From sequence record NZ_CP096708.1: a stretch of 64,000 bases of DNA. One strand, 5' to 3'. Positions 4,063-63,958 of this stretch are shown piece by piece; the stretch's first letter is position 1, and each line of letters begins with the position of its first letter. The position numbers were made by a program, and so were the translations under genes. The DNA comes from a plasmid. The notes under the pieces are model-generated. The model worked only from the letters and a program-made list of their open reading frames with translations, ran no database searches and was not told the DNA's origin.

Positions 4063-4252
4063 CAGCTGCCATAGATAGATGCATCTATGTAATCAGGAAC
4101 TAGGGCTTTGTAAGAGTGGCCATCATAGATAAAAACGTCTATGGCCGTGGCAAACTTAGCTTCAGTATAGATAAATATGTCTATGCTCGATTTACCTGGA
4201 AACATAGTCAAGTCTATCTATGCGCTTATGCTTTCTAGTGCGGATCCGCAAC
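4063..4252 (+). repeat. Repeat element B, copy 1: four 18-bp inverted-repeat operator-like sites plus a terminal palindrome
   Basis: Sites of the form ATAGAT-N6-RTCTAT lie at 4071-4088, 4125-4142, 4167-4184 and 4204-4221. The block ends with TGCGGATCCGCAAC. It is nearly identical to 45994-46183 and 61501-61700. Confidence 0.8.
4239..4252. repeat. Palindrome family copy (TGCGGATCCGCAAC)
   Basis: At the end of repeat B copy 1. Confidence 0.9.
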
Positions 4253-4442
4253 CTGGAGTCGCAACTCTGCGAGATTGCTCTGTAAAGGCCGTGTAGTGCC
4301 AAATAAAGGCAGTTGCGTTGCTGCGGTCAGCTCGACTTAATCACAGATTAAGTCGGCTTCGCTTGCAACCTGCAACGGTAATCAAGGAGGGAAGATACTT
4401 GAATTTCACCAGTTCGCAACGTAGACACGTTGCTCTGTTTAT
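4253..4442 (+). repeat. Repeat element C, copy 1: possible small RNA unit
   Basis: Contains a 10-bp-stem hairpin CGACTTAATC-ACA-GATTAAGTCG, an AAGGAGGG Shine-Dalgarno-like motif, and a terminal hairpin GCAACGT-AGAC-ACGTTGC followed by a T-rich tract. Near-identical copies lie at 7067-7247 and 61701-61878. A diverged inverted copy lies at 45779-45906. Confidence 0.75.
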
Positions 4443-4520
4443 TATGGTGAAATAGCCTTAAAGCAAAATACATGACCCTAGCATAAGCTAGGGGTTTTGT
4501 TATTTTCCAATCTTAGTATC

Positions 4521-4880: not shown

Positions 4881-4948
4881 GGTTATAATATTTTCATGGA
4901 ATCGGATAGGCTGATTCCTATTAGAGCCGTGAGGCTTAAGGTGAAGAA
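4881..4948 (+). promoter_or_regulatory. Conserved promoter-leader-RBS module (full form)
   Basis: -10 box TTATAAT at 4883-4889. Hairpin 1 GGAATC-GGATAGGCT-GATTCC at 4898-4918. Hairpin 2 AGCC-GTGA-GGCT at 4925-4936. Shine-Dalgarno TAAGGTG at 4937-4943. ATG at 4949. Confidence 0.7.
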
Positions 4949-7066: not shown

Positions 7067-7247
7067 GAGTCGCAACTCTGCGAGATTGCTCTGTAAAGGG
7101 CGTGTAGTGCCAAATAAAGGCAGTTGCGTTGCTGCGGTCAGCTCGACTTAATCACAGATTAAGTCGGCTTCGCTTGCAACCTGCAACGGTAATCAAGGAG
7201 GGAAGATACTTGAATTTCATCAGTTCGCAACGTAGACACGTTGCTCT
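7067..7247 (+). repeat. Repeat element C, copy 2
   Basis: Near-identical to 4259-4439. Here it is not preceded by block B. Confidence 0.75.
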
Positions 7248-7356
7248 AGATTTTATGTCAAAAATTCACAAATATAAGTCTCTGTTTTTACTGGTTTTAT
7301 TTATTTATAAAATGCCTATAATATTGTTTTTTATGCTTTTTTTATTTATCTGATGT

Positions 7357-7425
7357 GATATAATTAGAATTAAGAAATTGGATAGGCTAATTTCTTAATA
7401 GAGCTGAAAAGCTTAAGGTGAAAAT
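7357..7425 (+). promoter_or_regulatory. Conserved promoter-leader-RBS module (full form)
   Basis: -10 box GATATAAT at 7357-7364. Hairpin 1 GAAATT-GGATAGGCT-AATTTC at 7374-7394, with both arms changed in a compensatory way relative to other copies. Hairpin 2 AGCT-GAAA-AGCT at 7402-7413. Shine-Dalgarno AAGGTG. ATG at 7426. Confidence 0.7.
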
Positions 7426-10185: not shown

Positions 10186-12318
10186 ATGAAAGCAAAAAAT
10201 AATAACGGCCTTATAGAATTTACTCGTGGATCCGAAATATGGATTCATCAGTTCAAGATGTTCATTTCAAGTGTAATGAATGTGATTCTTTTTGGCGTGT
10301 GTGCAACACTTTGTATCGTTGCTTTATACCTCTATCTAAAATTAGATCAATCACATTTAGTGGCCGTTAGTGTCCAATGGGATATTCTAATACGACACGT
10401 GTTTTCTAATACTGAATCAAAGATCCCCCTTAAAATTAATGGTGCTATGCATGAGTACACCATCCAAGAAGCTCAGAGAATAATTGATCCATATTTTGCA
10501 CAATTCAAGTCCTATGTTTTCAAGTCACTTCTACTTGGTTTACTAAGTAGTGTCATGTTAATTGTTGGATTAATTTATTACTGGTTTTCCTATGGAAAAC
10601 AGGTAATGGCAGATGAACAGATACGAGGATCTGAGCTAAAATCAAATCAAGAATTGATTAATAAAATTAGAGATAATGGTGGATTTAGCCCATATAAATT
10701 AACTGGCGTACCACTTAAAAAAAATACTGAAGGAACAAATATTGGTGTAATTGGATCGCCTGGTTCTGGTAAGTCACAAGTCTTCCGTGATGTGATTTCT
10801 CAAGTAAGAAGTCGTCAAAGAAAGGCAATTATTTATGACCCTTCTGGTGAATTTACTCAGGAATTTTATCGACCTGGAGTAGATATAATTCTAAATCCTT
10901 TTGATGCACGAATGCCTTTTTGGAGTCCTTATCTTGAAGTTGAGCATGAAGAGCATTTTGATAGTATTGCAAAAGCATTCATCCCTGTAGTTTCGAAAGA
11001 ACCTTATTTTGAATCTGCTGCACAAGCTGTTTTTTCTGAGATTATGCGTGAACTTTATAATCAAGGTGATAAAACAAATAGATCTATTTATGACACAGTT
11101 TCTTTATCTACAGTTAGCGAAATTCACTCTCTGTTAGAAGGTACACCAGCAGCTAAGCATGTCGATCCTAAAAATGAAAAAACAGTGCTTGGCGTACTTT
11201 CAACAGTTCAAACTAAACTTGCTGTATTTCGTTATTTACCAGACTCAGGAGAGCCTTTTTCTATACGCCAATGGGTAAAAAAATCTGAAGAGGATTCATG
11301 TATATTTTTATCTATTCGAGAAGAACAAAAGACAACAATTGAGCCATTAATTGCTCTTTGGTTTTCGGTCTTTATTAAATCCGTTATGAACTTGCCAGCA
11401 ATACACAAAGAGTTACTTTGGTTGTTTTGTGATGAGATTCCAACTTTGCCACGGATGGATGACATACCAATGTCATTAACGAATACTCGAAAATACGGCT
11501 TATGTCATATGCTTGGCTTTCAGGATTTGCCACAGCTCGATAGTAAGTATGGCGATAAGATTGCTCAGTCAATGTTATCTGCATTACAGACAAAAATATT
11601 TATGCGTGTTAATGAAAACAATACTGCTAAACGTATGTCTGAAATATTGGGACAAATGGAAGTAGCAGAAAAAAATCAATCACGGTCTATGGGTATTGAA
11701 TCTAGTAGAGATGGAGATAGTTTTATTACACAAAGACGCGAACGTTTCATTGTGATGCCATCGGAAATTATGCGACTTCCTGACCTTAAAGGTTACTTAA
11801 GAATCCCTGGAGATTTTCCAGTAACTTTAGTTCAACAAACCTATCACCCACATACAAAAAATCAACCTCCACTTGTTCTGCGTGAGAGTCTAAGTGCTAT
11901 GGCAATTCTTACAAGTAACGATGATGTAGAGGAAGAAATAGATCATTCTAGTAATGGTATTTATGATCAAGTTTTAAGTCAAAATAATGATTTTTTAGCT
12001 CAGGATTCATCATACGATCATAGGCAAGAAGCTGATTATCTAGAGCCAGAATCTCAAGATGTCTATCAAGAAACATCCAATGAACAAAATGTATCTCAAT
12101 CAGTTCATGACGATAAAACTGGTGAATATGAAGATCAAAATTATCATGATGAGCTTGATGAAAAAAAGAAAGATACGAGTAGATTAGCTTCATTTAAAAA
12201 GTATGAAAATGAGGATAGTTCCAGCCAAGTTGATACATCATCACAGTCAACAAGTGAGTCAACTAATAACTCCAATGGTGACTTATTTTCAAACTACTTT
12301 GGCGACAACAATAATTAA
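10186..12318 (+). CDS. traD: Type IV coupling protein (TraD/VirD4 family)
   Basis: N-terminal transmembrane segments, Walker A GSPGSGKSQ, and an acidic Ser/Asp-rich C-terminal tail. Confidence 0.85.
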   Translation: MKAKNNNGLIEFTRGSEIWIHQFKMFISSVMNVILFGVCATLCIVALYLYLKLDQSHLVAVSVQWDILIRHVFSNTESKIPLKINGAMHEYTIQEAQRIIDPYFAQFKSYVFKSLLLGLLSSVMLIVGLIYYWFSYGKQVMADEQIRGSELKSNQELINKIRDNGGFSPYKLTGVPLKKNTEGTNIGVIGSPGSGKSQVFRDVISQVRSRQRKAIIYDPSGEFTQEFYRPGVDIILNPFDARMPFWSPYLEVEHEEHFDSIAKAFIPVVSKEPYFESAAQAVFSEIMRELYNQGDKTNRSIYDTVSLSTVSEIHSLLEGTPAAKHVDPKNEKTVLGVLSTVQTKLAVFRYLPDSGEPFSIRQWVKKSEEDSCIFLSIREEQKTTIEPLIALWFSVFIKSVMNLPAIHKELLWLFCDEIPTLPRMDDIPMSLTNTRKYGLCHMLGFQDLPQLDSKYGDKIAQSMLSALQTKIFMRVNENNTAKRMSEILGQMEVAEKNQSRSMGIESSRDGDSFITQRRERFIVMPSEIMRLPDLKGYLRIPGDFPVTLVQQTYHPHTKNQPPLVLRESLSAMAILTSNDDVEEEIDHSSNGIYDQVLSQNNDFLAQDSSYDHRQEADYLEPESQDVYQETSNEQNVSQSVHDDKTGEYEDQNYHDELDEKKKDTSRLASFKKYENEDSSSQVDTSSQSTSESTNNSNGDLFSNYFGDNNN

Positions 12319-12330
12319 AGCGAGGGAAAT

Positions 12331-15300
12331 ATGATAGGTGTCAATAATGTTTCTGAGACAGGACAAGCGTTAAAATATTATCAACTTGATAACTATTATA
12401 CGAATAGTCAGCAGGCTTTAGATCAGACTGAATGGTATGGTCAAGGAGCGCAGATACTTGGTATTGAAGGAGAGCAAGTTGATTCTAAAACGTTTGCAGA
12501 TCTTCTAAATGGAAAGATTGATGATCAGCAGTTAGGCAGAGTTAGAGTCGATGATCAAGGTAATAAATACATAGAGCACAGAGCAGCTATGGATATTACT
12601 TTTAGTGCACCGAAGTCAGTATCTATTCTTGCTGAAGTTTATCAAAATCAGGATGTTTTAGAAGCACATCAAAATGCAGTCAAAGAAACATTATCGACTA
12701 TTGAGGAGAATTTTGTTCAGACAAGATTAAGTGAAGATGGACAAAAACAAAAAGTTGATAGTGATAATTTAATAGTTGCTCTCTTTAATCATAATACTAG
12801 TCGTGCATTGGATCCTCAAACTCATACCCATGCTGTAGTTATGAATGCAACATTTAATGATAAAGATACTTGGTCAAGTATAAGTAATGAAGCAATTTAT
12901 GCAAATCAGTCAGTAATTGGTTCAATTTACAATGCTAACTTGGCTAATAATTTAAAGGAATTAGGTCTAGATCTTGAAGTAAAAGATAACAAAGGTAATT
13001 TTGAAATTGCGGGATTTTCTCCTGAAGTATTAGAAGAATTTTCGCAACGTAGAAAACAAATTATTGATAGCCTCAGTGATCGTGGTATTGATATTGGAGA
13101 CGCACCAGCCAGCTTACGTGAACAGGCAGCACTAAAAACGAGAGATCGAAAGAAAGGGTTTGATGAGCAAGAGCTTAGAGAAAGCTGGAAATCTAGAGCT
13201 AGTGAACTTGGGATTTCTGATAAATTTATTGACGACATTAGATTACAAATTAGAGAAAATAAGTTAATTGCGGATCCGCAACTAGGAAAAGAAACTCAAC
13301 CTGAAGAAGTTCAGGATCCACAGAAAATACCACAGACGAGAGATAATCAACTGGATCAACCTGAAGTAGCTCAAGATCCACAGAAAGTACCACAGACGAG
13401 AGATAATCAACTGGATCAACCTGAAGTAGCTCAAGATCCACAGAAAGTACCACAGATGAGAGATAATCAACTGGATCAGCCTGAAGTAGCTCAAGATCCA
13501 CAGAAAGTACTACAGACGAGAGATAATCAACTGGATCAGCCTAAATCAACCCAAGAACCAGAAAATCAAAAACCTAATAGAGTACGTCCACCTAAAAGAG
13601 ATAAACCACCAATTGTGATTTCCGAAAAAACCAAGGAAGCAGTTTTTTATTCTATTGGGCATCACACAGAACGTGAAATGATGATTAATGAAAATAAGAT
13701 CATAGATACAGCAATGAAAGTTGCTGTAGGTGAAACAGACTTTTTGCAAGTTAAAGCTGAACTGGATAGGTTGAAGAAAGCCAATATTATTATTCAGGTA
13801 GGAAATAGGATAACAACAAAAAAACTAGCTACTGATGAAGTATGGTCACTTGAACACATAAAATCAGAGAAAGGGAGTATGAGTCCAATACTCAATGAGA
13901 AAGCTATTAAGGACAGAATTAACCAGGAAGAAAAACTTAGAGGGAAGCAGTACACAGCAGGACAAAGAGATAGTATTGAGACGATTTTAACTTCTGACAG
14001 TAGATATGTTGCAGTAGATGGATTAGCAGGTACGGGTAAAACTACTCTCTTACATACTATTAATAAAATTGCGAGTGAAAACGGATTTATAGTAAGAGGA
14101 ATGGCAGCTACTGGTGTTGCAGCAAAGAACTTGGAAATGGAGACAGGAATAGAGTCTAAAACAATTGCCATGTTCCAATTTAAAGCTAATGATCTACTTA
14201 AACAGGCAATGGAGCAAGGCGTTGAAAATCGCAAACCTGAAATCTGGATTATAGATGAATCAAGTTTTGTTGGTCAGAATAGCTTTAAGGAAATTTTGAG
14301 CTTATCAAAACAACTAAATACAAGAGTTGTATTTTTAGGCGATAAAAACCAGTTACAAGCAATTAATGCAGGTAAACCTTTTGAATTAGCTCAAAATACA
14401 AATTCTATAGACTTGGCAAAAATGCATAATATTTTGCGTCAAAAGAATCAGGAATTAAAAGATGTTGTAACGTTGGTAGTAGCTAAAAATGATAAAGGAG
14501 AAATTGATCTTAGTAAAAATGCTGAAGCATTTGACTTATTGGATTCGCAAAAAAGAATACATGAATTTGGAAGTGTTCAATCTGGTAAAAATAAAGGGGT
14601 AAAAAGTCAGCTAAATGATAATGAAGATATACATCTTGTTCACAAAGAATTAATTAAAAGCTATATGTCAAATGATGCTAAAGGACGACAAGAAAGTTTA
14701 ATTATTACTCCATTTAACTCGGATCGTGTTGTTTTGAATGCATTGGTAAGAGAGGAAATGAGGAAGGCAAATGAACTTCATGGGCCTGATAGTGAATTTT
14801 CCATTCTTATCAATACAAATTACACAGAACCTCAAAGAAGTTTACAAGCAAACTATGAGCGAGGAATGGTAGTTAGATTTCAAAAAAACTATGCAGATAA
14901 AGATGGTCAAAATAAAATCTTTAAAGGCCAATATTTAAAAGTTTTGATGAAAAATAAAGACGGTACTCTAACATTGGAAGATAAAGACAAGAATCAGTTT
15001 CAATGGAATCCAAAGAAAAAGAGTAATAGTGTAGAAGTGTATAAAGAAGAAAATCGCAAGGTAGCAATTGGAGATACAGTCAGATTTACCAGAACTAAAG
15101 AAGAAGAAGATATAAAAAATGGTGAACGTTATAAGATTAAAGGCTTAACCGAAGATCATGTGAAAATTGAAGATCAAGCGGGAAACGAAAAGCTAATAGA
15201 TAAAGGTGATTTTAAACACTGGGATTATGGTTACAGTAATACAGTATATTCATCACAAGGGTTAACAAAAGGCAATGTATTCTTATTGCTCAACAGTCGA

Positions 15301-15570
15301 AAAATCGCTAAAGATTTAAATGACGATAAGGCTGCTACTAAGGTGCTAGGTAAAGCTTTTGGTACACGTTCTTTCTATGTGGCGGTAACACGAGAAGAGC
15401 ATAACTTGCAAGTTTTTACTGATAACAAGAATGCATCACGACAGGCCATAACATTTAAACAAGATAAGTCTAGTTTTGTTGAAGCTATTCAAAAAGCAAA
15501 TATCGAAATTCCAACGCATTTGTTAGAAAATGAAGAATTGCAACAAGCAAAATATGAGATTGATAGATAG
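12331..15570 (+). CDS. traI: MOBF relaxase-helicase (TraI/TrwC family)
   Basis: A 1079-aa protein with an N-terminal relaxase region (HTHAVVMN histidine motif) and a C-terminal RecD-like helicase carrying Walker A GLAGTGKTT. Confidence 0.85.
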   Translation: MIGVNNVSETGQALKYYQLDNYYTNSQQALDQTEWYGQGAQILGIEGEQVDSKTFADLLNGKIDDQQLGRVRVDDQGNKYIEHRAAMDITFSAPKSVSILAEVYQNQDVLEAHQNAVKETLSTIEENFVQTRLSEDGQKQKVDSDNLIVALFNHNTSRALDPQTHTHAVVMNATFNDKDTWSSISNEAIYANQSVIGSIYNANLANNLKELGLDLEVKDNKGNFEIAGFSPEVLEEFSQRRKQIIDSLSDRGIDIGDAPASLREQAALKTRDRKKGFDEQELRESWKSRASELGISDKFIDDIRLQIRENKLIADPQLGKETQPEEVQDPQKIPQTRDNQLDQPEVAQDPQKVPQTRDNQLDQPEVAQDPQKVPQMRDNQLDQPEVAQDPQKVLQTRDNQLDQPKSTQEPENQKPNRVRPPKRDKPPIVISEKTKEAVFYSIGHHTEREMMINENKIIDTAMKVAVGETDFLQVKAELDRLKKANIIIQVGNRITTKKLATDEVWSLEHIKSEKGSMSPILNEKAIKDRINQEEKLRGKQYTAGQRDSIETILTSDSRYVAVDGLAGTGKTTLLHTINKIASENGFIVRGMAATGVAAKNLEMETGIESKTIAMFQFKANDLLKQAMEQGVENRKPEIWIIDESSFVGQNSFKEILSLSKQLNTRVVFLGDKNQLQAINAGKPFELAQNTNSIDLAKMHNILRQKNQELKDVVTLVVAKNDKGEIDLSKNAEAFDLLDSQKRIHEFGSVQSGKNKGVKSQLNDNEDIHLVHKELIKSYMSNDAKGRQESLIITPFNSDRVVLNALVREEMRKANELHGPDSEFSILINTNYTEPQRSLQANYERGMVVRFQKNYADKDGQNKIFKGQYLKVLMKNKDGTLTLEDKDKNQFQWNPKKKSNSVEVYKEENRKVAIGDTVRFTRTKEEEDIKNGERYKIKGLTEDHVKIEDQAGNEKLIDKGDFKHWDYGYSNTVYSSQGLTKGNVFLLLNSRKIAKDLNDDKAATKVLGKAFGTRSFYVAVTREEHNLQVFTDNKNASRQAITFKQDKSSFVEAIQKANIEIPTHLLENEELQQAKYEIDR
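13268..13282. repeat. Palindrome family copy (TTGCGGATCCGCAAC) inside the traI CDS
   Basis: Encodes ADPQ and lies immediately before the 60-bp tandem repeats. Confidence 0.9.
13301..13556 (+). repeat. In-frame 60-bp tandem repeat (about 4.3 copies) inside traI
   Basis: Units start at 13301, 13361, 13421 and 13481. They encode PEVAQDPQKVPQTRDNQLDQ four times in the linker between the relaxase and helicase domains. Confidence 0.9.
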
Positions 15571-20063: not shown

Positions 20064-20092
20064 ATTAACACCTTAAGCTTAGCAGCTCGTAT

Positions 20093-33075: not shown

Positions 33076-33108
33076 CCGTAGAACAAAAATAGTCTAAAAC
33101 TTTATAGA

Positions 33109-33137
33109 AGCTGAAAAGCTTAAGGTGTGAATTTTAT
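33109..33137 (+). promoter_or_regulatory. Conserved leader-RBS module (hairpin 2 only)
   Basis: AGCT-GAAA-AGCT at 33109-33120. AAGGTG at 33122-33127. ATG at 33138. Confidence 0.6.
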
Positions 33138-45778: not shown

Positions 45779-45906
45779 AAGAGCAACGTGTCTACGTTGC
45801 GAACTGATGAAATTCGAGCATACCCATCTTTGATTACCGTTGCAGGTTGCAAGTGAAGCCGGCTTAATCTGTGATTAAGTCGAGCTGACCGCAGCAACGC
45901 AACTGC
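45779..45906 (-). repeat. Repeat element C, partial diverged inverted copy
   Basis: Reverse complement of about 4310-4439 with substitutions. The AAGGAGGG motif is lost. Confidence 0.7.
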
Positions 45907-45993
45907 TTTACTTGATCCTCGATGTAATCAACTAAGTATTCATGCAGATTTACGACATGTACTGTGCTTGCCATAATCTACATTTATCCAATG

Positions 45994-53389: not shown

Positions 53390-53397
53390 AAACTACT

Positions 53398-53413
53398 GTT
53401 GCGGATCCGCAAC
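53398..53413. repeat. Palindrome family copy (extended 22-bp form ACTGTTGCGGATCCGCAACAGT)
   Basis: Intergenic, flanked by an A-run and a T-run, so it is likely to act as a terminator. Confidence 0.9.
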
Positions 53414-53496
53414 AGTTTTTTTAAAAAAATAATATACAGAATAGTCTTTTTAATTGATAATGATATGACTAAGTAATACAATTAAGTCTCAAAATG

Positions 53497-55294: not shown

Positions 55295-55421
55295 GTTAGA
55301 TAAAGCTAACTGGTGAGCCGCATGGCTTATGGTGTGTATATGAAAAGCCAAATTAATGAGAATACCTACATTTTGATTGTAGAACTCTCAAATATTTTAA
55401 AAATTAAACAAGGATTTAATT

Positions 55422-55919
55422 ATGAGAATAATTAGTAAATTTTCATTATTAATTATCTTAGCGGCAACGGCTGGGCAAGTATTTTCCGCATCGGAGAAAG
55501 ATAGTTCAATAATGTCATCTGAGCAAATTGAGTTATTTCAGAAAAATGCTCTATTTATGAAAATTCCAAAATTACAGGATCGTCAAGATTCAAGTGGATT
55601 TATACTAAAGAAGGCTATGGAAAAGCTTGATACGCTAAAGACCTCTGAAGATAAGCTATCTTATGCAATTGCAATGAATCAGCAGTTAGATAGTGGATTT
55701 CATGTTAATGACAATTACTTTCCTCTACAGTGGAGTAAAGATAAAGAATATTTTGATGCTTTTTATATGGGGCTTTTATTTTCGATAAATGAAGAAATCA
55801 AAGCTGGAAAGAAAGATACCAATTCCATAGTCAAGGAGTATGAAAATAATTTTCCATTTAAGATTTACGACTCTGATTTGCTAAAAATCAAAGAGTACGA
55901 AGAAAATTTACAGCGATAA
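55422..55919 (+). CDS. Secreted hypothetical protein (165 aa)
   Basis: Signal peptide. Confidence 0.45.
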   Translation: MRIISKFSLLIILAATAGQVFSASEKDSSIMSSEQIELFQKNALFMKIPKLQDRQDSSGFILKKAMEKLDTLKTSEDKLSYAIAMNQQLDSGFHVNDNYFPLQWSKDKEYFDAFYMGLLFSINEEIKAGKKDTNSIVKEYENNFPFKIYDSDLLKIKEYEENLQR

Positions 55920-56305: not shown

Positions 56306-56369
56306 AGAAAGCTAAAACAACGTAAAAGTTGTTTAAATTTTACTATTTAGGCAATATCACAATGAAACT

Positions 56370-56385
56370 GTTGCGGATCCGCAAC
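56370..56385. repeat. Palindrome family copy upstream of the H-NS-like gene
   Basis: Lies 28 bp before the ATG. Confidence 0.9.
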
Positions 56386-56412
56386 ATAAATTAATCCAGA
56401 GAAGAGAAAGCT

Positions 56413-57010: not shown

Positions 57011-57150
57011 TCAAAAAACCTCTAGTTTTATAATTTATTATAAATCATTTTTTAAACTGTTCTGTAGAAAATACTATATTTATTTTGTACCTATTCGAAA
57101 AAAGTATATAATATCATCGTGAAATAATATGTCTTAAACATACTTTTTAG

Positions 57151-57175
57151 AGCCGATAGGCTTATGGTGTTAAAA
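57151..57175 (+). promoter_or_regulatory. Conserved leader-RBS module (hairpin 2 only)
   Basis: AGCC-GATA-GGCT TATGGTG ttaaaa ATG. Confidence 0.6.
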
Positions 57176-57907
57176 ATGAAAAATACACAAGGTAAAGAAC
57201 TAAACTTAATTCTTGGCGACCGTTATGCATCAGTACAAGAAGTATTGGATAGTAAAACTAATTTGAATGGTACTGTAGCGTCTTGGAATCTCAAAGCTTT
57301 GGACTCTATTCATGTAATAGATTCAATAAATGATGATCAAAAACGTAATGAAATTGCTTTTAAAAGAAAGCGTAAAAACAATGTAATAACATGGGCACTG
57401 ATTGGCGGAGTATTGGATGCTTCATCTGGAGAAGACAGTATTTTAGATGGTGTTTTATTAGGTGGATTATTCGGCTATGCATCCAGTGGCAGTGTAGAAA
57501 AACCTGAAGCGAGCATTCTCTTAACTTTTACTAATGGCGATAAATTAGGACTTTATGTTAACCAAAACGAACTTCTAAAAATTATGGAAGTACAACAAGA
57601 GGACAATTTAATTGATGGAAAAAAGATTGGTAATTTAACAGTAGAACAGCAGCAGATCGTTATTGAATCTCGTAGAAATGATGAATTTTTCAATCAACTG
57701 CTTGCAGCAGTTATTATGTTAATCGGTATAGGTCTTTTTAACTTTTTGTTCGGAGAGGACGTGAAGCAAGAAGTTACACATGGCGCATTACTGTTATACA
57801 TAGCAAATATAGGCGGAATGCTGTGTTTTATATATGTAGTCTTATATGCAACAGGTGTGATAGGAAATAAAACTGATGAAGAGTTTAAGAAACCTAACGA
57901 AAAGTAA
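57176..57907 (+). CDS. Hypothetical protein with a C-terminal membrane segment
   Basis: Start taken at MKNTQ behind the leader module. Confidence 0.45.
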   Translation: MKNTQGKELNLILGDRYASVQEVLDSKTNLNGTVASWNLKALDSIHVIDSINDDQKRNEIAFKRKRKNNVITWALIGGVLDASSGEDSILDGVLLGGLFGYASSGSVEKPEASILLTFTNGDKLGLYVNQNELLKIMEVQQEDNLIDGKKIGNLTVEQQQIVIESRRNDEFFNQLLAAVIMLIGIGLFNFLFGEDVKQEVTHGALLLYIANIGGMLCFIYVVLYATGVIGNKTDEEFKKPNEK

Positions 57908-57938
57908 ATTTTAAAACGACTTAATCTCAAAAAATATT

Positions 57939-57964
57939 AGCTGAAAAGCTTAAGGAGCTTAAAT
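57939..57964 (+). promoter_or_regulatory. Conserved leader-RBS module (hairpin 2 only)
   Basis: AGCT-GAAA-AGCT at 57939-57950. AAGGAG at 57952-57957. ATG at 57965. Confidence 0.6.
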
Positions 57965-58540
57965 ATGAAAACCAGTGAAGACAGAGTGACTAATTTTTTT
58001 CTGATTTTATACGGGGTTGCTGAAACTTTTATATATAATGTTGTCTTTATAACACTAATGATTATTGGTTATTTCTTGTCAAATAAACTTGGTTATGACC
58101 ATAAAGGTTTTCTTCTGTTTTTCTTATGTTTTTTAAGTGTTCAGTCTATTGGTAAATCACTGTATTTATTTGGATTGTTGTTTTATTCTAAGAGTTTGGA
58201 TCAATTTCCCTTAAAAGAATTAGGTATCTTTATTTCAAATTGTATTATTACAATTCTCACTATTTTTTTCACTTTCTATGTTTTTGATTTAAGCCTTTCT
58301 GATAAAAATACTTTTGGTACGTTTAGTACATTGTGCTTATTTATCATGATAGATTTTATGCTTACACCTTATTCTTTTAATATTTTTAGAAATTATAATT
58401 TTATTAACCAACCTGATCCAATGATTGAAAATCCCATTGTTGTTGATAAAAAAAGCAAAGGCATATTTAATTTTATCTTTAGTTTTTCCTCGCTGACTTT
58501 GGGTATGATAGTAGTTGAGTATCTTAGTAATCAAATTTAA
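57965..58540 (+). CDS. Polytopic membrane protein (191 aa)
   Basis: Several hydrophobic helices. Confidence 0.4.
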   Translation: MKTSEDRVTNFFLILYGVAETFIYNVVFITLMIIGYFLSNKLGYDHKGFLLFFLCFLSVQSIGKSLYLFGLLFYSKSLDQFPLKELGIFISNCIITILTIFFTFYVFDLSLSDKNTFGTFSTLCLFIMIDFMLTPYSFNIFRNYNFINQPDPMIENPIVVDKKSKGIFNFIFSFSSLTLGMIVVEYLSNQI

Positions 58541-58572
58541 TTTTCTATTTTAGATTTACTATTTTTTAATGA

Positions 58573-58597
58573 ACTGAAAGGTTTAAGGAGTTAAATA
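58573..58597 (+). promoter_or_regulatory. Conserved leader-RBS module (hairpin 2 only)
   Basis: AACT-GAAA-GGTT at 58573-58584. AAGGAG at 58585-58590. ATG at 58598. Confidence 0.55.
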
Positions 58598-58918
58598 ATG
58601 TTTGACACAACAAACGATATAAAAGTGGAAGCCCAAAATGCATTTGGAGCCTATGCTCTCATAGCATCTTCACCAAACCGAGGGCAACTTTACACTTTTA
58701 AGGCGATTCAATACTCTGTACATAGGATAGATAAAAGTAAAACTTATGAATTAAGTATATTTACAGGCATGATAGTTTCAATCAAAAGTAACGAATCAGA
58801 TCCAACGTTGCTTGAGGTTCGCTATATAAATCCTAGTAATAAGTATTGCGAGATATTTGTAACTGATATGTCGATATCTGAGCTTGAAAGTTTAATCAAT
58901 TCAAATAAATCTACGTAA
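58598..58918 (+). CDS. Hypothetical protein (106 aa)
   Basis: The ORF sits behind a leader module. Confidence 0.45.
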   Translation: MFDTTNDIKVEAQNAFGAYALIASSPNRGQLYTFKAIQYSVHRIDKSKTYELSIFTGMIVSIKSNESDPTLLEVRYINPSNKYCEIFVTDMSISELESLINSNKST

Positions 58919-59013
58919 AATTAATCACAGGGTTTTATTAAGTTTGAAAAATTTCTAGCGTGCTTTCATTCTTTAGTTATGGTTTTTATTGAGTAAAGTA
59001 CGCTAATTCATAG

Positions 59014-59042
59014 AGCTGAAAAGCTTAAGGTGTTTTGAAAAT
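59014..59042 (+). promoter_or_regulatory. Conserved leader-RBS module (hairpin 2 only)
   Basis: AGCT-GAAA-AGCT at 59014-59025. AAGGTG at 59027-59032. ATG at 59043. Confidence 0.6.
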
Positions 59043-59132
59043 ATGAAAATTAGATATTTAAAATTGATCGTTCTCTTTTTATTTGTTCAGGCTTTAATTG
59101 CATGCCATCAAATAGCAGGAGGTGTAATTTGA
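59043..59132 (+). CDS. Possible 29-aa leader peptide ORF overlapping the methyltransferase start
   Basis: The ATG follows the module. The ORF contains AGGAGGTG four nt before an in-frame TTG (59129) of the methyltransferase reading frame. Confidence 0.25.
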   Translation: MKIRYLKLIVLFLFVQALIACHQIAGGVI

Positions 59133-60619
59133 CTAGTTTTACAGACTATACACAACCTTTTAATACGCAATATTCACTAAACTTTGATAAGAAAATTATT
59201 ATTGATTTTTTTGCAGGCGGTGGAGGGGCAAGTACTGGTTTAGAATCAGGATTAAATCGCATTGTATATGCTGCTGTTAACCATAACCCTAAATCTATAG
59301 CAATGCATGAAGCCAATCACCCCTATACAAAACATTATATTCAAGATGTTTTCGCTGTTGATCCTATTCAAATATGTAATGGATATTCAGTTGGATGGTT
59401 TCATGCTAGTCCAGACTGCACTCATCATAGCCAAGCAGCAGGTGGTCAACCTAGAAAAAAAGAAATACGTGACTTGAGTTGGGTTGTTTTAAAATTTGCG
59501 GGAAAGGTTAAACCCACTGTCATATCTTTAGAAAATGTTAAGCAGATTCTAGATTGGGGGCCACTAATAGCAAAGAGAGATAAATTAAGTGGCAGGGTAA
59601 TAACACTAGAAAAAATAGAAGTTAATGGAAAAATTATAAATAGAATTGCAGATCCTGGGGAAGTAGTCCCAAGACATAAGCAATTTTTAATTCCTGATCC
59701 AAAAAGAAAGGGTGAAACATGGCTTAGGTTTGTAAGTGAACTTAGGAAACTAGGTTATGTTGTGGATTGGAGAAAAGATATCGTTGCTGCTGACTATGGA
59801 GCTGGAACAATTAGAGAGCGATTATTTATGGTCGCTCGATGCGATAATAAACCTATTCTTTGGCCTGAACGATTATTTTCTAAATTACCTTCTTCTCAAC
59901 AAAACCGATGGATACCGACCGCAGTTTTTATTGATTGGGATGATTTAGGAAAGTCTATCTTTAATCGCTCAAGAGGGCCTTTAGCGGAAGCTACTCTAAA
60001 ACGTATAGCAAAGGGTTTAAAAAAATATGTTCTGGATGCTAAATATCCATACCTCATAAATCCAAAACACTATTCTGAAAAAATTGATGTTAATTCGACA
60101 CACGAATTTCTTAGCAAAGATTCATTCGAAGCTGATTTTTTTGCACCATACATTACCGAATTTGCAAATGCATCTCAGCAGCGTAATTGGTCAATAGATC
60201 AACCTTTATCTACAATATGTGCTCAAGTTAAAGGCGGTCACCACGGTTTAGTAACAGCAAAATTAAGTAAAAATAATTACGAAGGAGCGATGAGAGTTGC
60301 TGCATTCATAATTAATTACTATGGAAATGGGGATGCAAGAGATATACGTGCACCAATGGATACAATAACAACAAAAGATAGACTAGCACTGGTAACAGTT
60401 TGGATTCGCAATGAACCCTTTATGATTGTTGATATTTGCTTAAGGATGTTTAAACCTCGTGAACTTTTCCGTGCACAAGGGTTTCCAGATTCATACATTA
60501 TTAACCCCACATATGAAGGAAAGCCATTATCAATAAAGGATCAGGTACACATGGTGGGTAATTCAGTGTCTCCAATGCCAATGGCTGCAATAGCTAGAAT
60601 TAATAATCCATTTAATTAA
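59102..60619 (+). CDS. DNA (cytosine-5) methyltransferase, orphan
   Basis: Motif I FFAGGGG, a catalytic Cys in SPDCTHHSQ (a variant of the PCQ motif), and ENV motif VI. No restriction endonuclease gene is adjacent. Confidence 0.7.
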   Translation: MPSNSRRCNLTSFTDYTQPFNTQYSLNFDKKIIIDFFAGGGGASTGLESGLNRIVYAAVNHNPKSIAMHEANHPYTKHYIQDVFAVDPIQICNGYSVGWFHASPDCTHHSQAAGGQPRKKEIRDLSWVVLKFAGKVKPTVISLENVKQILDWGPLIAKRDKLSGRVITLEKIEVNGKIINRIADPGEVVPRHKQFLIPDPKRKGETWLRFVSELRKLGYVVDWRKDIVAADYGAGTIRERLFMVARCDNKPILWPERLFSKLPSSQQNRWIPTAVFIDWDDLGKSIFNRSRGPLAEATLKRIAKGLKKYVLDAKYPYLINPKHYSEKIDVNSTHEFLSKDSFEADFFAPYITEFANASQQRNWSIDQPLSTICAQVKGGHHGLVTAKLSKNNYEGAMRVAAFIINYYGNGDARDIRAPMDTITTKDRLALVTVWIRNEPFMIVDICLRMFKPRELFRAQGFPDSYIINPTYEGKPLSIKDQVHMVGNSVSPMPMAAIARINNPFN

Positions 60620-60633
60620 TTGAAATTTTATAG

Positions 60634-60657
60634 AGCCTAACGGCTTAAGGTGAAGAA
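60634..60657 (+). promoter_or_regulatory. Conserved leader-RBS module (hairpin 2 only)
   Basis: AGCC-TAAC-GGCT at 60634-60645. AAGGTG at 60647-60652. ATG at 60658. Confidence 0.6.
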
Positions 60658-61434
60658 ATGAAGAAATTTTATCAAATCAGTTTTAGTGGTGGACGTACTT
60701 CAGCATATTTAACCTATTACTTACTACGAAATTTTAGCCATCTTTATAACTTTATTGTGACTTTCGCAAACACAGGCATCGAGCATGAAAAAACTCTAGA
60801 ATTTGTGGACAATTGTGATAAATATTTTAACTTTAACACTGTTTGGTTAGAGCCAGTTATTAATCCACAAAAAAGAGTAGGCACAACACATAAAGTAGTA
60901 AGTTTTGAGACGGCAACGCGCAGTACAGACCTATTTGAGCAAATGATTGAAAAATACGGGATACCGAACAAAGTATATAAGCATTGCACACGTGAATTAA
61001 AAATACGTCCAATGGATTCATATATTCGAAGTCTTGGCTTAAAGCCGAAAGAAATACCAACTGCTATTGGCATACGTATTGATGAATCTCGGCGCTGTAC
61101 GAAGAAAGCAGAAGAGTATAATTTCAGATATCCATTGGTTACTGAACACCCAGTTGATAAGCAATTTATCTTAGATTGGTGGTCAAACCAAGAGTTTGAC
61201 TTAGATCTGGATGAGTGGGATGGTAATTGTAATATGTGTTTTGAAAAATCATTTCCTAAATTATTAAAGCAACTAGAAACAAATCCTAAAGCGCTAGATT
61301 TTCATCTGAGAATGGAAAGAATCCACGGCCAAACGAACAATCAACTCGGAATGCCAGATCGAGTTTTTTTCCGTCAAAATTACTCTGCTCTTGATATTTT
61401 AAAAATGAGTAGACAAGCTCTAGCAGCAGCTTAG
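60658..61434 (+). CDS. PAPS-reductase-family (PP-loop) protein
   Basis: PP-loop SFSGGRTS near the N-terminus. Positioned immediately after the C5 methyltransferase. Confidence 0.65.
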   Translation: MKKFYQISFSGGRTSAYLTYYLLRNFSHLYNFIVTFANTGIEHEKTLEFVDNCDKYFNFNTVWLEPVINPQKRVGTTHKVVSFETATRSTDLFEQMIEKYGIPNKVYKHCTRELKIRPMDSYIRSLGLKPKEIPTAIGIRIDESRRCTKKAEEYNFRYPLVTEHPVDKQFILDWWSNQEFDLDLDEWDGNCNMCFEKSFPKLLKQLETNPKALDFHLRMERIHGQTNNQLGMPDRVFFRQNYSALDILKMSRQALAAA

Positions 61435-61500
61435 CTACGTCCTTATTTCCCTTCAAATCCGAATGGTGAATATTCCCTATTCACTAAGTGTTTTAAATTA

Positions 61501-61700
61501 CAGCTGCCATAGATAGATGCATCTATGTAATCAGGAACTAGGGCTTTGTAAGAGTGGCCATCATAGATAAAAACGTCTATGGCCGTGGCAAACTTAGCTT
61601 CAGTATAGATAAATATGTCTATGCTCGATTTACCTGGAAACATAGTCAAGTCTATCTATGCGCTTATGCTTTCTAGTGCGGATCCGCAACCTGGAGTCGC
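61501..61700 (+). repeat. Repeat element B, copy 4
   Basis: Identical to 4063-4252. Confidence 0.8.
61687..61700. repeat. Palindrome family copy (end of repeat B copy 4)
   Basis: TGCGGATCCGCAAC. Confidence 0.9.
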
Positions 61701-61878
61701 AACTCTGCGAGATTGCTCTGTAAAGGCCGTGTAGTGCCAAATAAAGGCAGTTGCGTTGCTGCGGTCAGCTCGACTTAATCACAGATTAAGTCGGCTTCGC
61801 TTGCAACCTGCAACGGTAATCAAGGAGGGAAGATACTTGAATTTCATCAGTTCGCAACGTAGACACGTTGCTCTGTTT
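61701..61878 (+). repeat. Repeat element C, copy 4
   Basis: Identical to 4253-4439 apart from one substitution. Confidence 0.75.
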
Positions 61879-61881
61879 TTT
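61854..61881 (+). terminator. Intrinsic terminator at the 3' end of element C
   Basis: GCAACGT-AGAC-ACGTTGC followed by TCTGTTTTTT. Confidence 0.6.
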
Positions 61882-62464
61882 AATCATCGAGTTTAGATAA
61901 AGGTTGAAATGCCTTAAAAGAATATTTTTTAAATACAATATTTGTGTCCTGGTATCGGATCTTTCTCAGGTCATTAATTTTATCTACTATATTTGAATAT
62001 TTTTCATACAGTTCTTTAATATCATTAGAATTGGCTCTATCTGCAAACATATTTTCAGCTTGTTTCTCTAACTTACTAATAGTTTGGTCTAAGCGTTGAA
62101 CTACTTGAATTGCTTCAGGAGCAGCTATTTCAGTTTTATTCAGGGTGAGATCAGATAGGATCTTATTATAATAATTTGATTTTTGCCTATCTTCATATTT
62201 AATGATGTAATCTCTACGATCAAATATGTCACAAGTAGGGTTTAAACGTTTTATTGATCGTTTAGCCTTGACGACATCATCTGCATTCCAGTAGCCCATA
62301 TCCCCATCTTGGGCGACTATAAACATATCTTCATTTAGAAAAACCAATACAACAGTTTTTAAAGTTAAATTTTCTCTTTCATACCGTACAAAGTAGATTT
62401 TACTGGCATCTTTTATATGTGATGAGCTTTCTTTGCTCAGCCTGGTATGGCGATTATTGGTCAT
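61880..62464 (-). CDS. Hypothetical protein (194 aa)
   Basis: A clean minus-strand ORF. Confidence 0.4.
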   Translation of the reverse strand: MTNNRHTRLSKESSSHIKDASKIYFVRYERENLTLKTVVLVFLNEDMFIVAQDGDMGYWNADDVVKAKRSIKRLNPTCDIFDRRDYIIKYEDRQKSNYYNKILSDLTLNKTEIAAPEAIQVVQRLDQTISKLEKQAENMFADRANSNDIKELYEKYSNIVDKINDLRKIRYQDTNIVFKKYSFKAFQPLSKLDD

Positions 62465-63103: not shown

Positions 63104-63112
63104 TCTAAATAG

Positions 63113-63136
63113 AGCTGAAAAGCTTAAGGTGGAAAA
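63113..63136 (+). promoter_or_regulatory. Conserved leader-RBS module (hairpin 2 only)
   Basis: AGCT-GAAA-AGCT at 63113-63124. AAGGTG at 63126-63131. ATG at 63137. Confidence 0.6.
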
Positions 63137-63913
63137 ATGAAAAAATCAGATAAGTCATTATCTTATGATGAGTTGAAAAGTGAATTTATTTCAAAATTGA
63201 AAACAATAGATCAATCAAAACGACTATATGAAGTATTTCAAGATTTTGTATTTTTTTCTGCTGCATCATTGAGAAATTCTGTAGGCCAAATAGATAGCTC
63301 ATTTATGGATTTAGATCTTGAAAATGAGTATCTGAAAAGAATGCACGGATATGAAGATCTTAAAAGCAGACAGGCCTTTTGTGAGCTATTAGGAATGTTG
63401 GTAATGATGCATACAGTAAAACAAGTTCCATTTGATGTGCTAGGGCAAGTTTATATGGAACTTGAGATAGCAAACCAACATTTAGGTCAGTATTATACGC
63501 CTAGTGCAATTTCTGATGTGATGGCAAATATGACTTTACAGGGCTTTCAAGCCACTGTAAGAGACCAGGGTTTTATAACACTTTCAGACCCTGCATGTGG
63601 ATCAGGAGCAACACTCTTAAGTTGTGTGAAGTTATTTGTCGAAAATAATTATAGAGTTGAAAACACCTTGTATATTGAAGCTACAGACATTGACCGTCAT
63701 GCTGCTTTGATGTGTTATGTTCAACTTAGCTTATGGGGAGTTCCCTGTAAAATTCATGTAGGGAATAGCTTAACAATGGAAATGCGTGAATCATGGTGTA
63801 GTTTTATGTATTTCATGAAAGGTTGGAAAATGAAATTAAATAGATTTATGCTTCAGCAACAAAGTAAGTCTGGTGAAAGTTATGTACCAAATTTTATATT
63901 AGTTGAAAGTTGA
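63137..63913 (+). CDS. N6-adenine methyltransferase-like protein lacking the catalytic NPPY/F motif
   Basis: GQYYTP (motif X) and LSDPACGSGATLL (motif I) are present. The ORF stops after IHVGNSL... with no (D/N)PP(Y/F). Confidence 0.5.
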   Translation: MKKSDKSLSYDELKSEFISKLKTIDQSKRLYEVFQDFVFFSAASLRNSVGQIDSSFMDLDLENEYLKRMHGYEDLKSRQAFCELLGMLVMMHTVKQVPFDVLGQVYMELEIANQHLGQYYTPSAISDVMANMTLQGFQATVRDQGFITLSDPACGSGATLLSCVKLFVENNYRVENTLYIEATDIDRHAALMCYVQLSLWGVPCKIHVGNSLTMEMRESWCSFMYFMKGWKMKLNRFMLQQQSKSGESYVPNFILVES

Positions 63914-63932: not shown

Positions 63933-63958
63933 AAGTTGTTGCGGATCCGCAACAACTT
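63933..63958. repeat. Palindrome family copy (26-bp perfect palindrome AAGTTGTTGCGGATCCGCAACAACTT)
   Basis: Intergenic, 20 bp after the methyltransferase-like ORF. Confidence 0.9.

Follow-up and report, generated by a model that had tools for sequence, protein, structure and literature searches.

An orphan cytosine methyltransferase gene and a NinC/SspD-like PP-loop gene on an Acinetobacter baumannii conjugative plasmid: neighbors rather than a conserved pair

The window analyzed here was a 64,000-nucleotide stretch of sequence record NZ_CP096708.1, which came from a conjugative resistance plasmid (MOBF, ~70 kb) of Acinetobacter baumannii, and two adjacent genes on its plus strand (59043 to 61434) were studied: an orphan C5-cytosine DNA methyltransferase gene and a gene for a PP-loop protein assigned by profile and motif matches to the lambda NinC family, which is homologous to the phosphorothioation enzyme SspD. 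Both genes were intact, and they did not constitute a conserved pair across plasmids, phages and genomes. On balance, we incline to read them as two independent, co-transcribed cassettes for DNA marking or anti-restriction, located in the establishment region of the plasmid and probably entering the recipient early. The following features, all on the plus strand, were concerned (ORF, open reading frame):

59043..59132, plus strand: 29-codon upstream ORF, starting at ATG 59043 and containing the methyltransferase Shine-Dalgarno sequence AGGAGGTG.
59129..60619, plus strand: orphan C5-cytosine DNA methyltransferase, 496 aa from TTG (public annotation: ATG 59102, 505 aa).
60658..61434, plus strand: lambda NinC-family, SspD-like PP-loop protein, 258 aa, assigned from phrog_424, lambda NinC and SspD matches.

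The methyltransferase (searched as ORF 59102-60619) matched PF00145 (E 9e-25; 88.2 bits against a cut-off of 22), phrog_116 (E 3.6e-86) and many PADLOC methyltransferase models, and its score with the NCBIfam dcm superfamily model TIGR00675 was 71.7, under the cut-off of 100.65. It carried FFAGGGG, SPDC, ENV, RERLF (RxR) and GNSV (GN), each invariant in 28 of 28 aligned homologues; these we take to be motifs I (FxGxG), IV (Pro-Cys with the nucleophile Cys), VI (ENV), VIII (RxR) and X (GN), respectively. A sequence-only reading of this DNA, whose ORFs, motifs and coordinates were all recovered in place, had called the SPDC context of the catalytic Cys unusual; instead, it was the norm of a large methyltransferase family, the SPDCxHHS block being invariant across the 28-homologue alignment and the Asp between Pro and Cys being subfamily-wide. 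This family comprised 7604 proteins at E<=0.001 among 7999 scored: (i) the Acinetobacter homologues were mostly chromosomal and displayed 55-72% identity; and (ii) further homologues were present in phages (186 records) and in large Pseudomonas plasmids. The nearest named relative was the C5 methylase of Pseudomonas phage F116 (~50% identity), the gene of which was flanked by two adenine methylases, and the only sequence match in the Protein Data Bank (PDB) was the cytosine methyltransferase 3g7u, whose alignment covered motifs I-VI, VIII and IX-X. Judged from these homologies, the gene is an intact, phage-type methyltransferase gene of phage derivation. Searches of the flanking ORFs 57164, 57965, 58598, 61880(-) and 62615 (Pfam, plus PHROGs and PADLOC where tested) detected no nuclease family, and the closest nuclease was a thermonuclease homologue 4 kb upstream (Pfam); the methyltransferase had no adjacent cognate endonuclease of the kind that defines a type II restriction-modification system, and it was an orphan, as the sequence-only reading had supposed. 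Literature searches gave no methylome or target specific to this methyltransferase, and nothing specific on a RepAci6 oriT (origin of transfer) or methylase; an active enzyme with target sites of its own is presumed in what follows.

The PP-loop protein (PP-loop SFSGGRTS) matched phrog_424 with E 5.5e-46, while its match to PF01507 (E 4.5e-9) covered residues 7-70 only. Pairwise comparison with lambda NinC gave 34% identity over 201 aa (E 1e-26), and tblastn against phages returned 504 records including lambda, where the matched gene was ninC itself. The two marks by which the lambda NinC family was recognized, a PP-loop of the form SGG(R/K)TS and a GNCxxC motif, were both present, with homology over most of the length; the plasmid protein and lambda NinC shared the SGGRTS PP-loop, GIRxDExxR and GNCxxC, and G11, G12, T14, S15, N190, C191 and C194 were invariant in 33 aligned NinC-like sequences. 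The two proteins differed at the end and in their setting: lambda NinC (290 aa) ended in the Cys pair CSESC, which the plasmid protein lacked, and the plasmid gene was carried by a conjugative plasmid. In phages, family members typically lay in the early region, the replication region or the nin region (with NinG as a neighbor in 8 of 80 viral loci). The family was very large and spread over many phyla (at least 7875 protein clusters, out of 8000 scored candidates, at E<=0.001), and it included 204 plasmid records. Among its 21 long members, six metagenomic homologues (P0127-P0129, P0133, P0134 and P0142) contained intein or homing-endonuclease domains.

The kinship with SspD was evident in profiles, in motif order and in profile-profile alignment. 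Among the PADLOC models, SspD matched with E 5.6e-14 and DndC, partially, with E 7.7e-6; hhalign of the NinC-like protein against Acinetobacter SspD gave a probability of 97.6% (E 2.9e-12, 197 columns). Identity to bona fide Acinetobacter SspD was 22-23%, and the motifs followed one another in the same order in both (PP-loop, T/N-T-G-x-E, Cys-Thr, GIRxDE and CxxC). The protein was nevertheless neither SspD nor DndC in the strict sense: (i) true Acinetobacter SspD scored ~1e-130 with the model that gave 5.6e-14 here; (ii) NCBIfam gave weak partial matches, the DndC equivalog TIGR03183 reaching 20.1 bits against a cut-off of 290.4 (residues 99-155); (iii) none of the six proteins neighboring the NinC-like gene matched Ssp or Dnd partners in PADLOC, so that SspB, SspC, DndD and DndE were all missing from the neighborhood; and (iv) the C-terminal CxxC of SspD was absent. 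The protein is accordingly described as a NinC-family member homologous to SspD, a placement derived from these comparisons.

Structure placed the NinC-like protein in a broad class. The AlphaFold2 model built from the 33-sequence alignment (mean predicted local distance difference test score 94) displayed a generic PP-loop fold, with which 3'-phosphoadenosine 5'-phosphosulfate (PAPS) and adenosine 5'-phosphosulfate (APS) reductases, [4Fe-4S] LarE, NcsA, GMP synthetase and TilS tied in Foldseek/VIA-align (Z 10.7-12.7, 11-20% identity); by enzyme, Z was 11.5-12.7 for PAPS/APS reductases, 12.2 for LarE, 11.5 for NcsA, 11.4 for GMP synthetase, 10.9 for TilS and 9.7 for TtuA. A conventional PAPS reductase of sulfate assimilation (CysH), carried as metabolic cargo, would account for the PF01507 match at residues 7-70 and for the presence of PAPS reductases among the best structural matches, and its likeness to the NinC-like protein was that of the PP-loop alpha/beta fold (best VIA-align Z 12.7, root-mean-square deviation 4.0, 166 residues aligned). 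This origin is scarcely credible: no cysH model occurred among the NCBIfam matches at E<=0.01, identity to solved PAPS/APS reductases was 11-21% with template modeling (TM) scores of 0.35-0.48, the best score in a sequence search of PDB chains was only E 0.43, and the NinC-like family resides in phage DNA-metabolism modules. The catalytic C-terminal motif of CysH, which we take to be of the ECGLH type, had no counterpart either, as the plasmid protein had no Cys beyond C194 and ended without a Cys-bearing tail. The CysH assignment was rejected on the missing model match, the low identity, the missing Cys tail and the mobile-element and phage context, which agrees with the sequence-only reading.

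Since the fold search tied with so many PP-loop enzymes (the tRNA thiolases NcsA and TtuA, TilS, GMP synthetase and LarE), the protein might act on RNA or nucleotides, by tRNA thiolation, by lysidine-type modification or on a nucleotide-derived metabolite, and its adjacency to the methyltransferase would then be incidental. The function of lambda NinC is unknown, literature searches turned up no paper giving a biochemical function for a lambda NinC-type protein, and the gene is listed as non-essential in PMC10695390. Such a role off the DNA is nonetheless improbable: the closest studied sequence relatives were the DNA-phosphorothioation enzymes SspD and DndC, and the neighbors in the 80 viral loci were genes of DNA replication, recombination and modification (PolA in 13, DUF2800/PD-(D/E)XK in 13, primase in 11 and NinG in 8, plus methyltransferases). 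A preprint (10.1101/2021.05.05.442762) further ties a PAPS-Dam fusion, moved together with a neighboring gene, to escape from Dnd.

The comparison was then extended to the occurrence of the two genes together. Of 119 plasmid records matching the region, six had the methyltransferase, while 113 carried only the NinC-like gene (~80% identity). In pAbPK1b, a plasmid of the RepAci6 type, the methyltransferase slot was filled by a 363-aa protein with PF01507 and phrog_424 matches that, by BLAST, was not similar to the NinC-like protein. The stretch shared by the two plasmid types started at 60643, within the hairpin-Shine-Dalgarno module (see below) ahead of the NinC-like gene. Acinetobacter phages and prophages had one slot for either gene, flanked by a ~100-aa gene (49-50% identical across loci) and a replication-type HTH_36 gene (41-44%): it held the methyltransferase in three loci (L179, L181 and L182) and the NinC-like gene in a fourth (L008), and none of the 10 methyltransferase loci examined contained a NinC-like gene. 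The two genes thus appear to be alternatives for one slot in Acinetobacter (pro)phages, which is a new point, and the functional pair that had been proposed from their adjacency on this plasmid was not borne out.

A wider, looser association was real, and the proposal that methyltransferase/PAPS-reductase-like neighborhoods recur in mobile elements held. Of the 80 viral NinC loci, 18 had a methyltransferase within three called genes, adjacent in seven (Pfam); an independent scan with seed hidden Markov models (HMMs) again found 18 of 80 viral loci, and 13 of 73 genome loci, for a total of 31 of 153. These 153 were the loci with a called NinC gene among 162, and the seed HMMs represented five methyltransferase classes, so that families outside them would be missed. 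Methyltransferases made up 35 of 795 genes at distance 1-3 compared to 13 of 868 at distance 4-10 (odds ratio 3.0, Fisher p 6e-4, among loci that are not phylogenetically independent). The partners belonged to several classes (C5, N6_N4 and Dam), and natural fusions were found: a 479-aa PAPS-Dam protein in Vibrio phage 75E35.1, and an N6_N4 domain in one of the 21 long homologues. The association of methyltransferase and NinC genes was accordingly real but loose, and not that of a conserved pair.

These fusions and this ~3-fold enrichment, together with a gap of only 38 nt between the two genes of the plasmid and the lack of a predicted terminator ahead of 61854 (terminator scan), with probable co-transcription, would also suit a single pathway, in which the methyltransferase or its DNA-binding/base-flipping module targets the PP-loop enzyme and a modification beyond 5-methylcytosine results, for instance a base that is thiolated or hypermodified in another way, or a phosphorothioate placed at specific sites. 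We consider this unlikely, because (i) the partners were not conserved and belonged to at least three unrelated methyltransferase classes (C5, N6_N4 and Dam); (ii) 122 of the 153 loci had no methyltransferase within three genes; (iii) the NinC-like gene occurred without this methyltransferase in the 113 plasmid records and in L008; and (iv) prophages held the two genes as alternatives in one slot.

Two tandem PAPS-reductase-like genes were seen in RepAci6-type plasmids (pAbPK1b, locus L005, 4868-6790): the 363-aa protein had SGGKDS plus a C-terminal Cys-Gly motif, and its 257-aa partner was a tail-less NinC-like protein, so that the tandem might be a two-subunit arrangement. In NZ_MT849274 (L002, 5869-7790), both genes were split into several ORFs, for which frameshifts or sequencing errors could be the cause.

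The plasmid protein belonged to a tail-less group of NinC-like proteins. In the 33-sequence alignment, a GGCSESCE-type tail was present in 27 sequences and absent in six. These six were the window protein and five others, of which three were named Acinetobacter proteins and two were unnamed. The C-termini of the 80 viral homologues were as follows: CxxxC in 50, a CFC-type pair in 20, other Cys pairs in five, truncated ORF calls in three, a single Cys in one, and a full-length, tail-less end in one (L008, 80% identical to the window protein). The tail-less gene was under strong purifying selection and not decaying, with a ratio of nonsynonymous to synonymous substitutions (dN/dS) of 0.059 between the window copy and the RepAci6-type copy (dN 0.097, dS 1.63). 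The invariant residues were kept, including C53, C110, C191 and C194, as were the PP-loop and three conserved cysteines matching cysteines of SspD. Related thiolation enzymes (NcsA and TtuA were among the fold matches) are known to contain [4Fe-4S] clusters ligated by three Cys, with one iron site left free, and therefore loss of the tail need not abolish catalysis. This tail-less Acinetobacter NinC-like clade is likewise a new point.

The methyltransferase start was examined together with the 29-codon upstream ORF. The Shine-Dalgarno sequence AGGAGGTG occupied 59117-59124, four bases ahead of an in-frame TTG (59129-59131), and the stop TGA of the 29-codon ORF (59130-59132) overlapped this TTG as TTGA (59129-59132). 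Among 151 Acinetobacter genomes, six matched the methyltransferase at E<=1e-50, of which the five that included the N-terminal part were analyzed: in all five chromosomal homologues, the ATG aligned to TTG 59129, the TGA of the upstream gene overlapped the start as ATGA, and a purine-rich GG(N)GG stretch was located within the final codons of the upstream gene. Among named homologues, the two closest, those of a Pseudomonas koreensis plasmid and of phage F116, had a Met-Thr-Ala/Ser start that coincided with the TTG in the alignment; homologue starts at this position read MTS or MNT; the six close database homologues that were fetched all started there as well (MTS, MTT, MNN...); and a 496-aa form of the methyltransferase was on record (P0144, 99% identity). 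Because the homologue starts align there and the ATGA overlap recurs in all five relatives, the real start is almost certainly TTG 59129 (496 aa), as this alignment indicates, and the annotated ATG 59102 is probably not the true start.

The overlap of stop and start was that expected of a translationally coupled pair, and the arrangement was conserved in the relatives; this small-ORF geometry, identical to that of the homologues, supports coupled translation. The plasmid's standard hairpin-Shine-Dalgarno module would drive the 29-codon ORF, ribosomes would translate it and terminate at the overlapping TGA, and they would reinitiate on TTG 59129 to make the methyltransferase. Both the TTG start and the coupling had been anticipated from the DNA alone, and the five homologues agreed with them. 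The companion claim, that each gene stood behind its own leader module, held in part: a hairpin-Shine-Dalgarno module preceded both units, but the one at 59013 fed the 29-codon ORF and not the methyltransferase directly. Minimum-energy folding of the RNA from 59000-59145 paired the Shine-Dalgarno sequence with a pyrimidine stretch inside the 29-codon ORF, which we count as compatible with coupling and no more.

Alternatively, the 29-codon ORF might be a recombination scar left when the methyltransferase cassette arrived, or it might encode a small lipopeptide, with the methyltransferase translated uncoupled from its own Shine-Dalgarno sequence. We hold this to be a serious alternative, though one to be doubted: AGGAGGTG would be strong enough alone, the product, read by eye from the sequence, resembled a signal peptide with a lipobox-like LIAC, and the local fold was insignificant (z 0.07). 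The ORF was found only in the six identical plasmid records (distant blastn plus tblastn against plasmids), and its MAFFT alignment to the upstream genes of the prophage homologues was unconvincing. Against it, the frame was preserved so that the stop overlapped the start exactly as in the five homologues, a standard translation module sat on the ORF, and a second module of the window likewise led to a short ORF (55340-55435) that overlapped the next gene start. Descent of the ORF from the C-terminus of the prophage upstream gene was also considered and was dropped, as MAFFT gave no support beyond the last few codons. The second case, at 55314-55435, was made up of a hairpin-Shine-Dalgarno module, a 31-codon ORF (ATG 55340-55435) and a 14-nt overlap with the next gene start at 55422. 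Coupled translation from the 29-codon ORF remains the reading that we prefer.

The modules next to the two genes were:

59013..59032, plus strand: hairpin-Shine-Dalgarno module with a 5-bp stem, a 4-nt loop and TAAGGTG, feeding ATG 59043.
60633..60652, plus strand: hairpin-Shine-Dalgarno module directly before the NinC-like gene; the RepAci6-type homology starts inside it, at 60643.

A scan of the window gave 20 hairpin-Shine-Dalgarno sites compared to 1.24 +/- 1.29 (maximum 6) in 100 shuffles. Eighteen of these 20 shared the module sequence (e.g., 4924-4943, 7401-7420, 33108-33127, 57150-57169, 63112-63131 and, on the minus strand, 20069-20088); 16 of the 18 led to ORFs of 97-475 codons, and the other two to the ORFs of 29 and 31 codons. 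In the 20 aligned copies, 99% of stem cells were paired, and the loop-closing pair covaried (CG in nine, UA in nine and UG in two), a score that 0 of 500 shuffles matched. Modules preceded most small genes of the window. Because the RepAci6-type homology breaks inside one of them, the modules may also mark cassette boundaries.

The gene neighborhood was compared with that of related plasmids. Positions 58900-61500 were 100% identical to six A. baumannii plasmids of ~55-71 kb (e.g., NC_021727 and NZ_CP096733), all typed as conjugative, MOBF and MPF_F. The annotation of NZ_CP096733 displayed a single long same-strand gene array running from rep through parAB to the coupling protein (T4CP) and MobF relaxase genes, in this order: rep, a zeta-toxin family gene, DUF1173, small genes without a known role, thermonuclease, H-NS, further small genes, the cytosine methyltransferase, the PP-loop gene, a short N6-methylase-like gene, parA, parB, ~20 small genes, and then the coupling protein and the MobF relaxase. 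Three further features delimited the unit and its surroundings in the window:

10186-15570: coupling protein and MobF relaxase genes.
57164..58918, plus strand: three same-strand genes upstream of the methyltransferase (247, 191 and 106 aa), each behind a hairpin-Shine-Dalgarno module or a variant of it.
61661..61882, plus strand: copy of a structured repeat (~220 nt) with a terminator-like hairpin at 61854-61871, closing the operon.

The three upstream genes had no Pfam family and none in PHROGs or PADLOC where tested, and no terminator was predicted between them and the methyltransferase by the terminator scan; they probably share its operon, which would be transcribed as a single unit from ~57150 to the terminator-like hairpin at 61854-61871.

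In MOBF plasmids elsewhere, oriT lies just upstream of the coupling-protein operon. If it does so here, the whole array points to oriT, with the methyltransferase and the NinC-like gene on the leading side; the gene orientation matches what is expected of a leading region, in which the transferred strand would be the template, and a leading-region location of both genes is plausible. Compared to the orphan methyltransferases of plasmid leading regions and of phages, the present one was likewise solitary, amid many small genes and on the strand for which the transferred strand would be the template; it differed in lying ~18-20 kb from the presumed oriT, beyond parAB, and in having its translation tied to a short upstream ORF.

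As two independent cassettes, the genes would operate as follows. The methyltransferase would modify its target sites in plasmid and host chromosomal DNA alike, and the cytosine-methylation-sensitive restriction enzymes of a new host would then not cut the methylated sites. The NinC-like protein, a PP-loop ATP-pyrophosphatase of the NinC/SspD/DndC lineage, would most likely act on DNA: ATP would adenylate a DNA-linked substrate, and an Fe-S cluster would do the sulfur chemistry. Alternatively, it would compete with host SspD or interfere with sulfur chemistry, and either route would allow escape from phosphorothioate-based defenses such as SspBCDE or Dnd, presumably with early expression after transfer.

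Published work gives this scheme a setting. Orphan methyltransferases are reported to be a prominent function of plasmid leading regions (PMC11541004, Nature 2024); the main text of that paper does not mention PAPS reductases or Acinetobacter, while its supplementary file 6 places five PAPS reductase families (73, 9, 7, 7 and 5 members) under 'Other unknown leading families'. PAPS reductases occur in Aca-regulated operons, for which evasion of restriction or phosphorothioation systems has been suggested (PMC13551039, NAR 2026). In Vibrio phages, two genes moved into a sensitive phage allowed it to infect Dnd-carrying Vibrio, and one of them encoded a 479-aa PAPS-Dam fusion (10.1101/2021.05.05.442762); the sequence-only reading had called the role of such methyltransferase/PAPS-reductase-like pairs unresolved, and this anti-Dnd effect addresses it in part. 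The Dnd-escape experiment was made with phage 44E38.1, a relative of phage 75E35.1, and the neighboring gene was moved too (10.1101/2021.05.05.442762). Compared to the PAPS/Dam fusion of Vibrio crassostreae phages (p0018), the NinC-like protein was 33% identical, over residues 7-210, to the N-terminal domain of the 479-aa 75E35.1 protein: both systems joined a NinC-type domain and a DNA methyltransferase on a mobile element, but the fusion was a single polypeptide with a Dam-type adenine methylase and CSESC kept, while the plasmid had two genes, a C5 methylase and no tail.

SspBCDE is reported to occur in 61.9% of A. baumannii genomes, a share that reaches 96% within the ST2 group (preprint 10.1101/2024.10.26.620419), and a second source also describes it as highly prevalent (PMC11723918). 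The same preprint reports that a common prophage, DgiS1, has an 'sspD' (HMM E 1.3e-14) proposed to mark phage DNA; this 'sspD' may belong to the NinC-like family, because its E-value resembles that of the NinC-like protein. A possible link of NinC-like proteins to SspBCDE is a new point. The tail-less NinC/SspD-like clade might go further and be a dedicated counter to SspBCDE, either by marking DNA with the help of host Ssp proteins or by poisoning the host complex as a defective SspD look-alike; a role against SspBCDE is a guess, and this specialized form of it is rather unlikely.

Several observations weigh against two independent, early-entering cassettes, or against parts of the scheme. 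(i) The enrichment of methyltransferases and the natural fusions make some functional methyltransferase-NinC link possible. (ii) The C-terminal Cys pair, which 75 of the 80 viral homologues share with lambda NinC and SspD, was absent from the plasmid protein, and a tail-less NinC-like protein may do different chemistry or none. (iii) Known phosphorothioation systems are described as pairing a PAPS-domain protein with a P-loop NTPase that is needed (PMC12914056; PMC12707154), and no P-loop NTPase was located beside the NinC-like gene. (iv) Among 101 Acinetobacter genomes, the NinC-like gene was present in three, SspD in five and both in one, numbers that are too few to judge. (v) The two genes lay ~18-20 kb from the presumed oriT, past parAB, a distance estimated from gene maps. 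(vi) The RNA fold of the upstream-ORF region was not stabler than shuffles (z 0.07, as given above).

The structured repeat at the end of the operon occurred in four copies of ~190-220 nt with 92-99% identity, the others being located at 4223-4444, 7067-7255 and 45780-45914 (minus strand). Two copies in pAbPK1b had diverged (71-74% identity); they flanked the PAPS-reductase-like pair and showed compensatory changes in the central hairpin. Rfam gave no family in the whole window at gathering thresholds, and none in 61550-61950 at E<=5; the repeat might function as a single-strand promoter or initiation site, or might instead be a small RNA. It also contained a short ORF behind a strong Shine-Dalgarno sequence. 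A separate GC-rich palindrome with GGATCC was found between gene blocks (53397-53414, 56369-56386 and 63937-63954, with a variant at 61674-61691), and it was terminator-like in at least one orientation (terminator scan).

Two further genes lay downstream. The minus-strand ORF at 61880-62464 encoded 194 aa without a family match (Pfam, PHROGs and PADLOC) and was an insertion relative to pAbPK1b (687 bp here compared to 107 bp there). The gene at 63137-63913, kept downstream of the NinC-like gene in both plasmid lineages, encoded a 258-aa 'N-6 DNA methylase' that was only the N-terminal part of a gamma-class methyltransferase: motif I (DPACGSG) was present, no clear NPPY/F catalytic motif was seen by eye, and the protein matched phrog_5696 (unknown function) with E 4.9e-63.

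Both genes are of known kinds, and the methyltransferase is an ordinary case of a known strategy. Carbapenem resistance in Acinetobacter spreads on plasmids such as this one, and how they pass the defenses of their recipients is poorly known. If the tail-less clade is indeed such a dedicated counter to SspBCDE, methyltransferases and NinC-like genes would act as 'epigenetic passports', exchangeable for one another at a slot bounded by conserved hairpin-Shine-Dalgarno modules, and lambda ninC, an orphan gene for 40 years, would gain a function. The SspD homology, the alternation in one slot and the loss of the tail under strong selection make the role of NinC directly testable.

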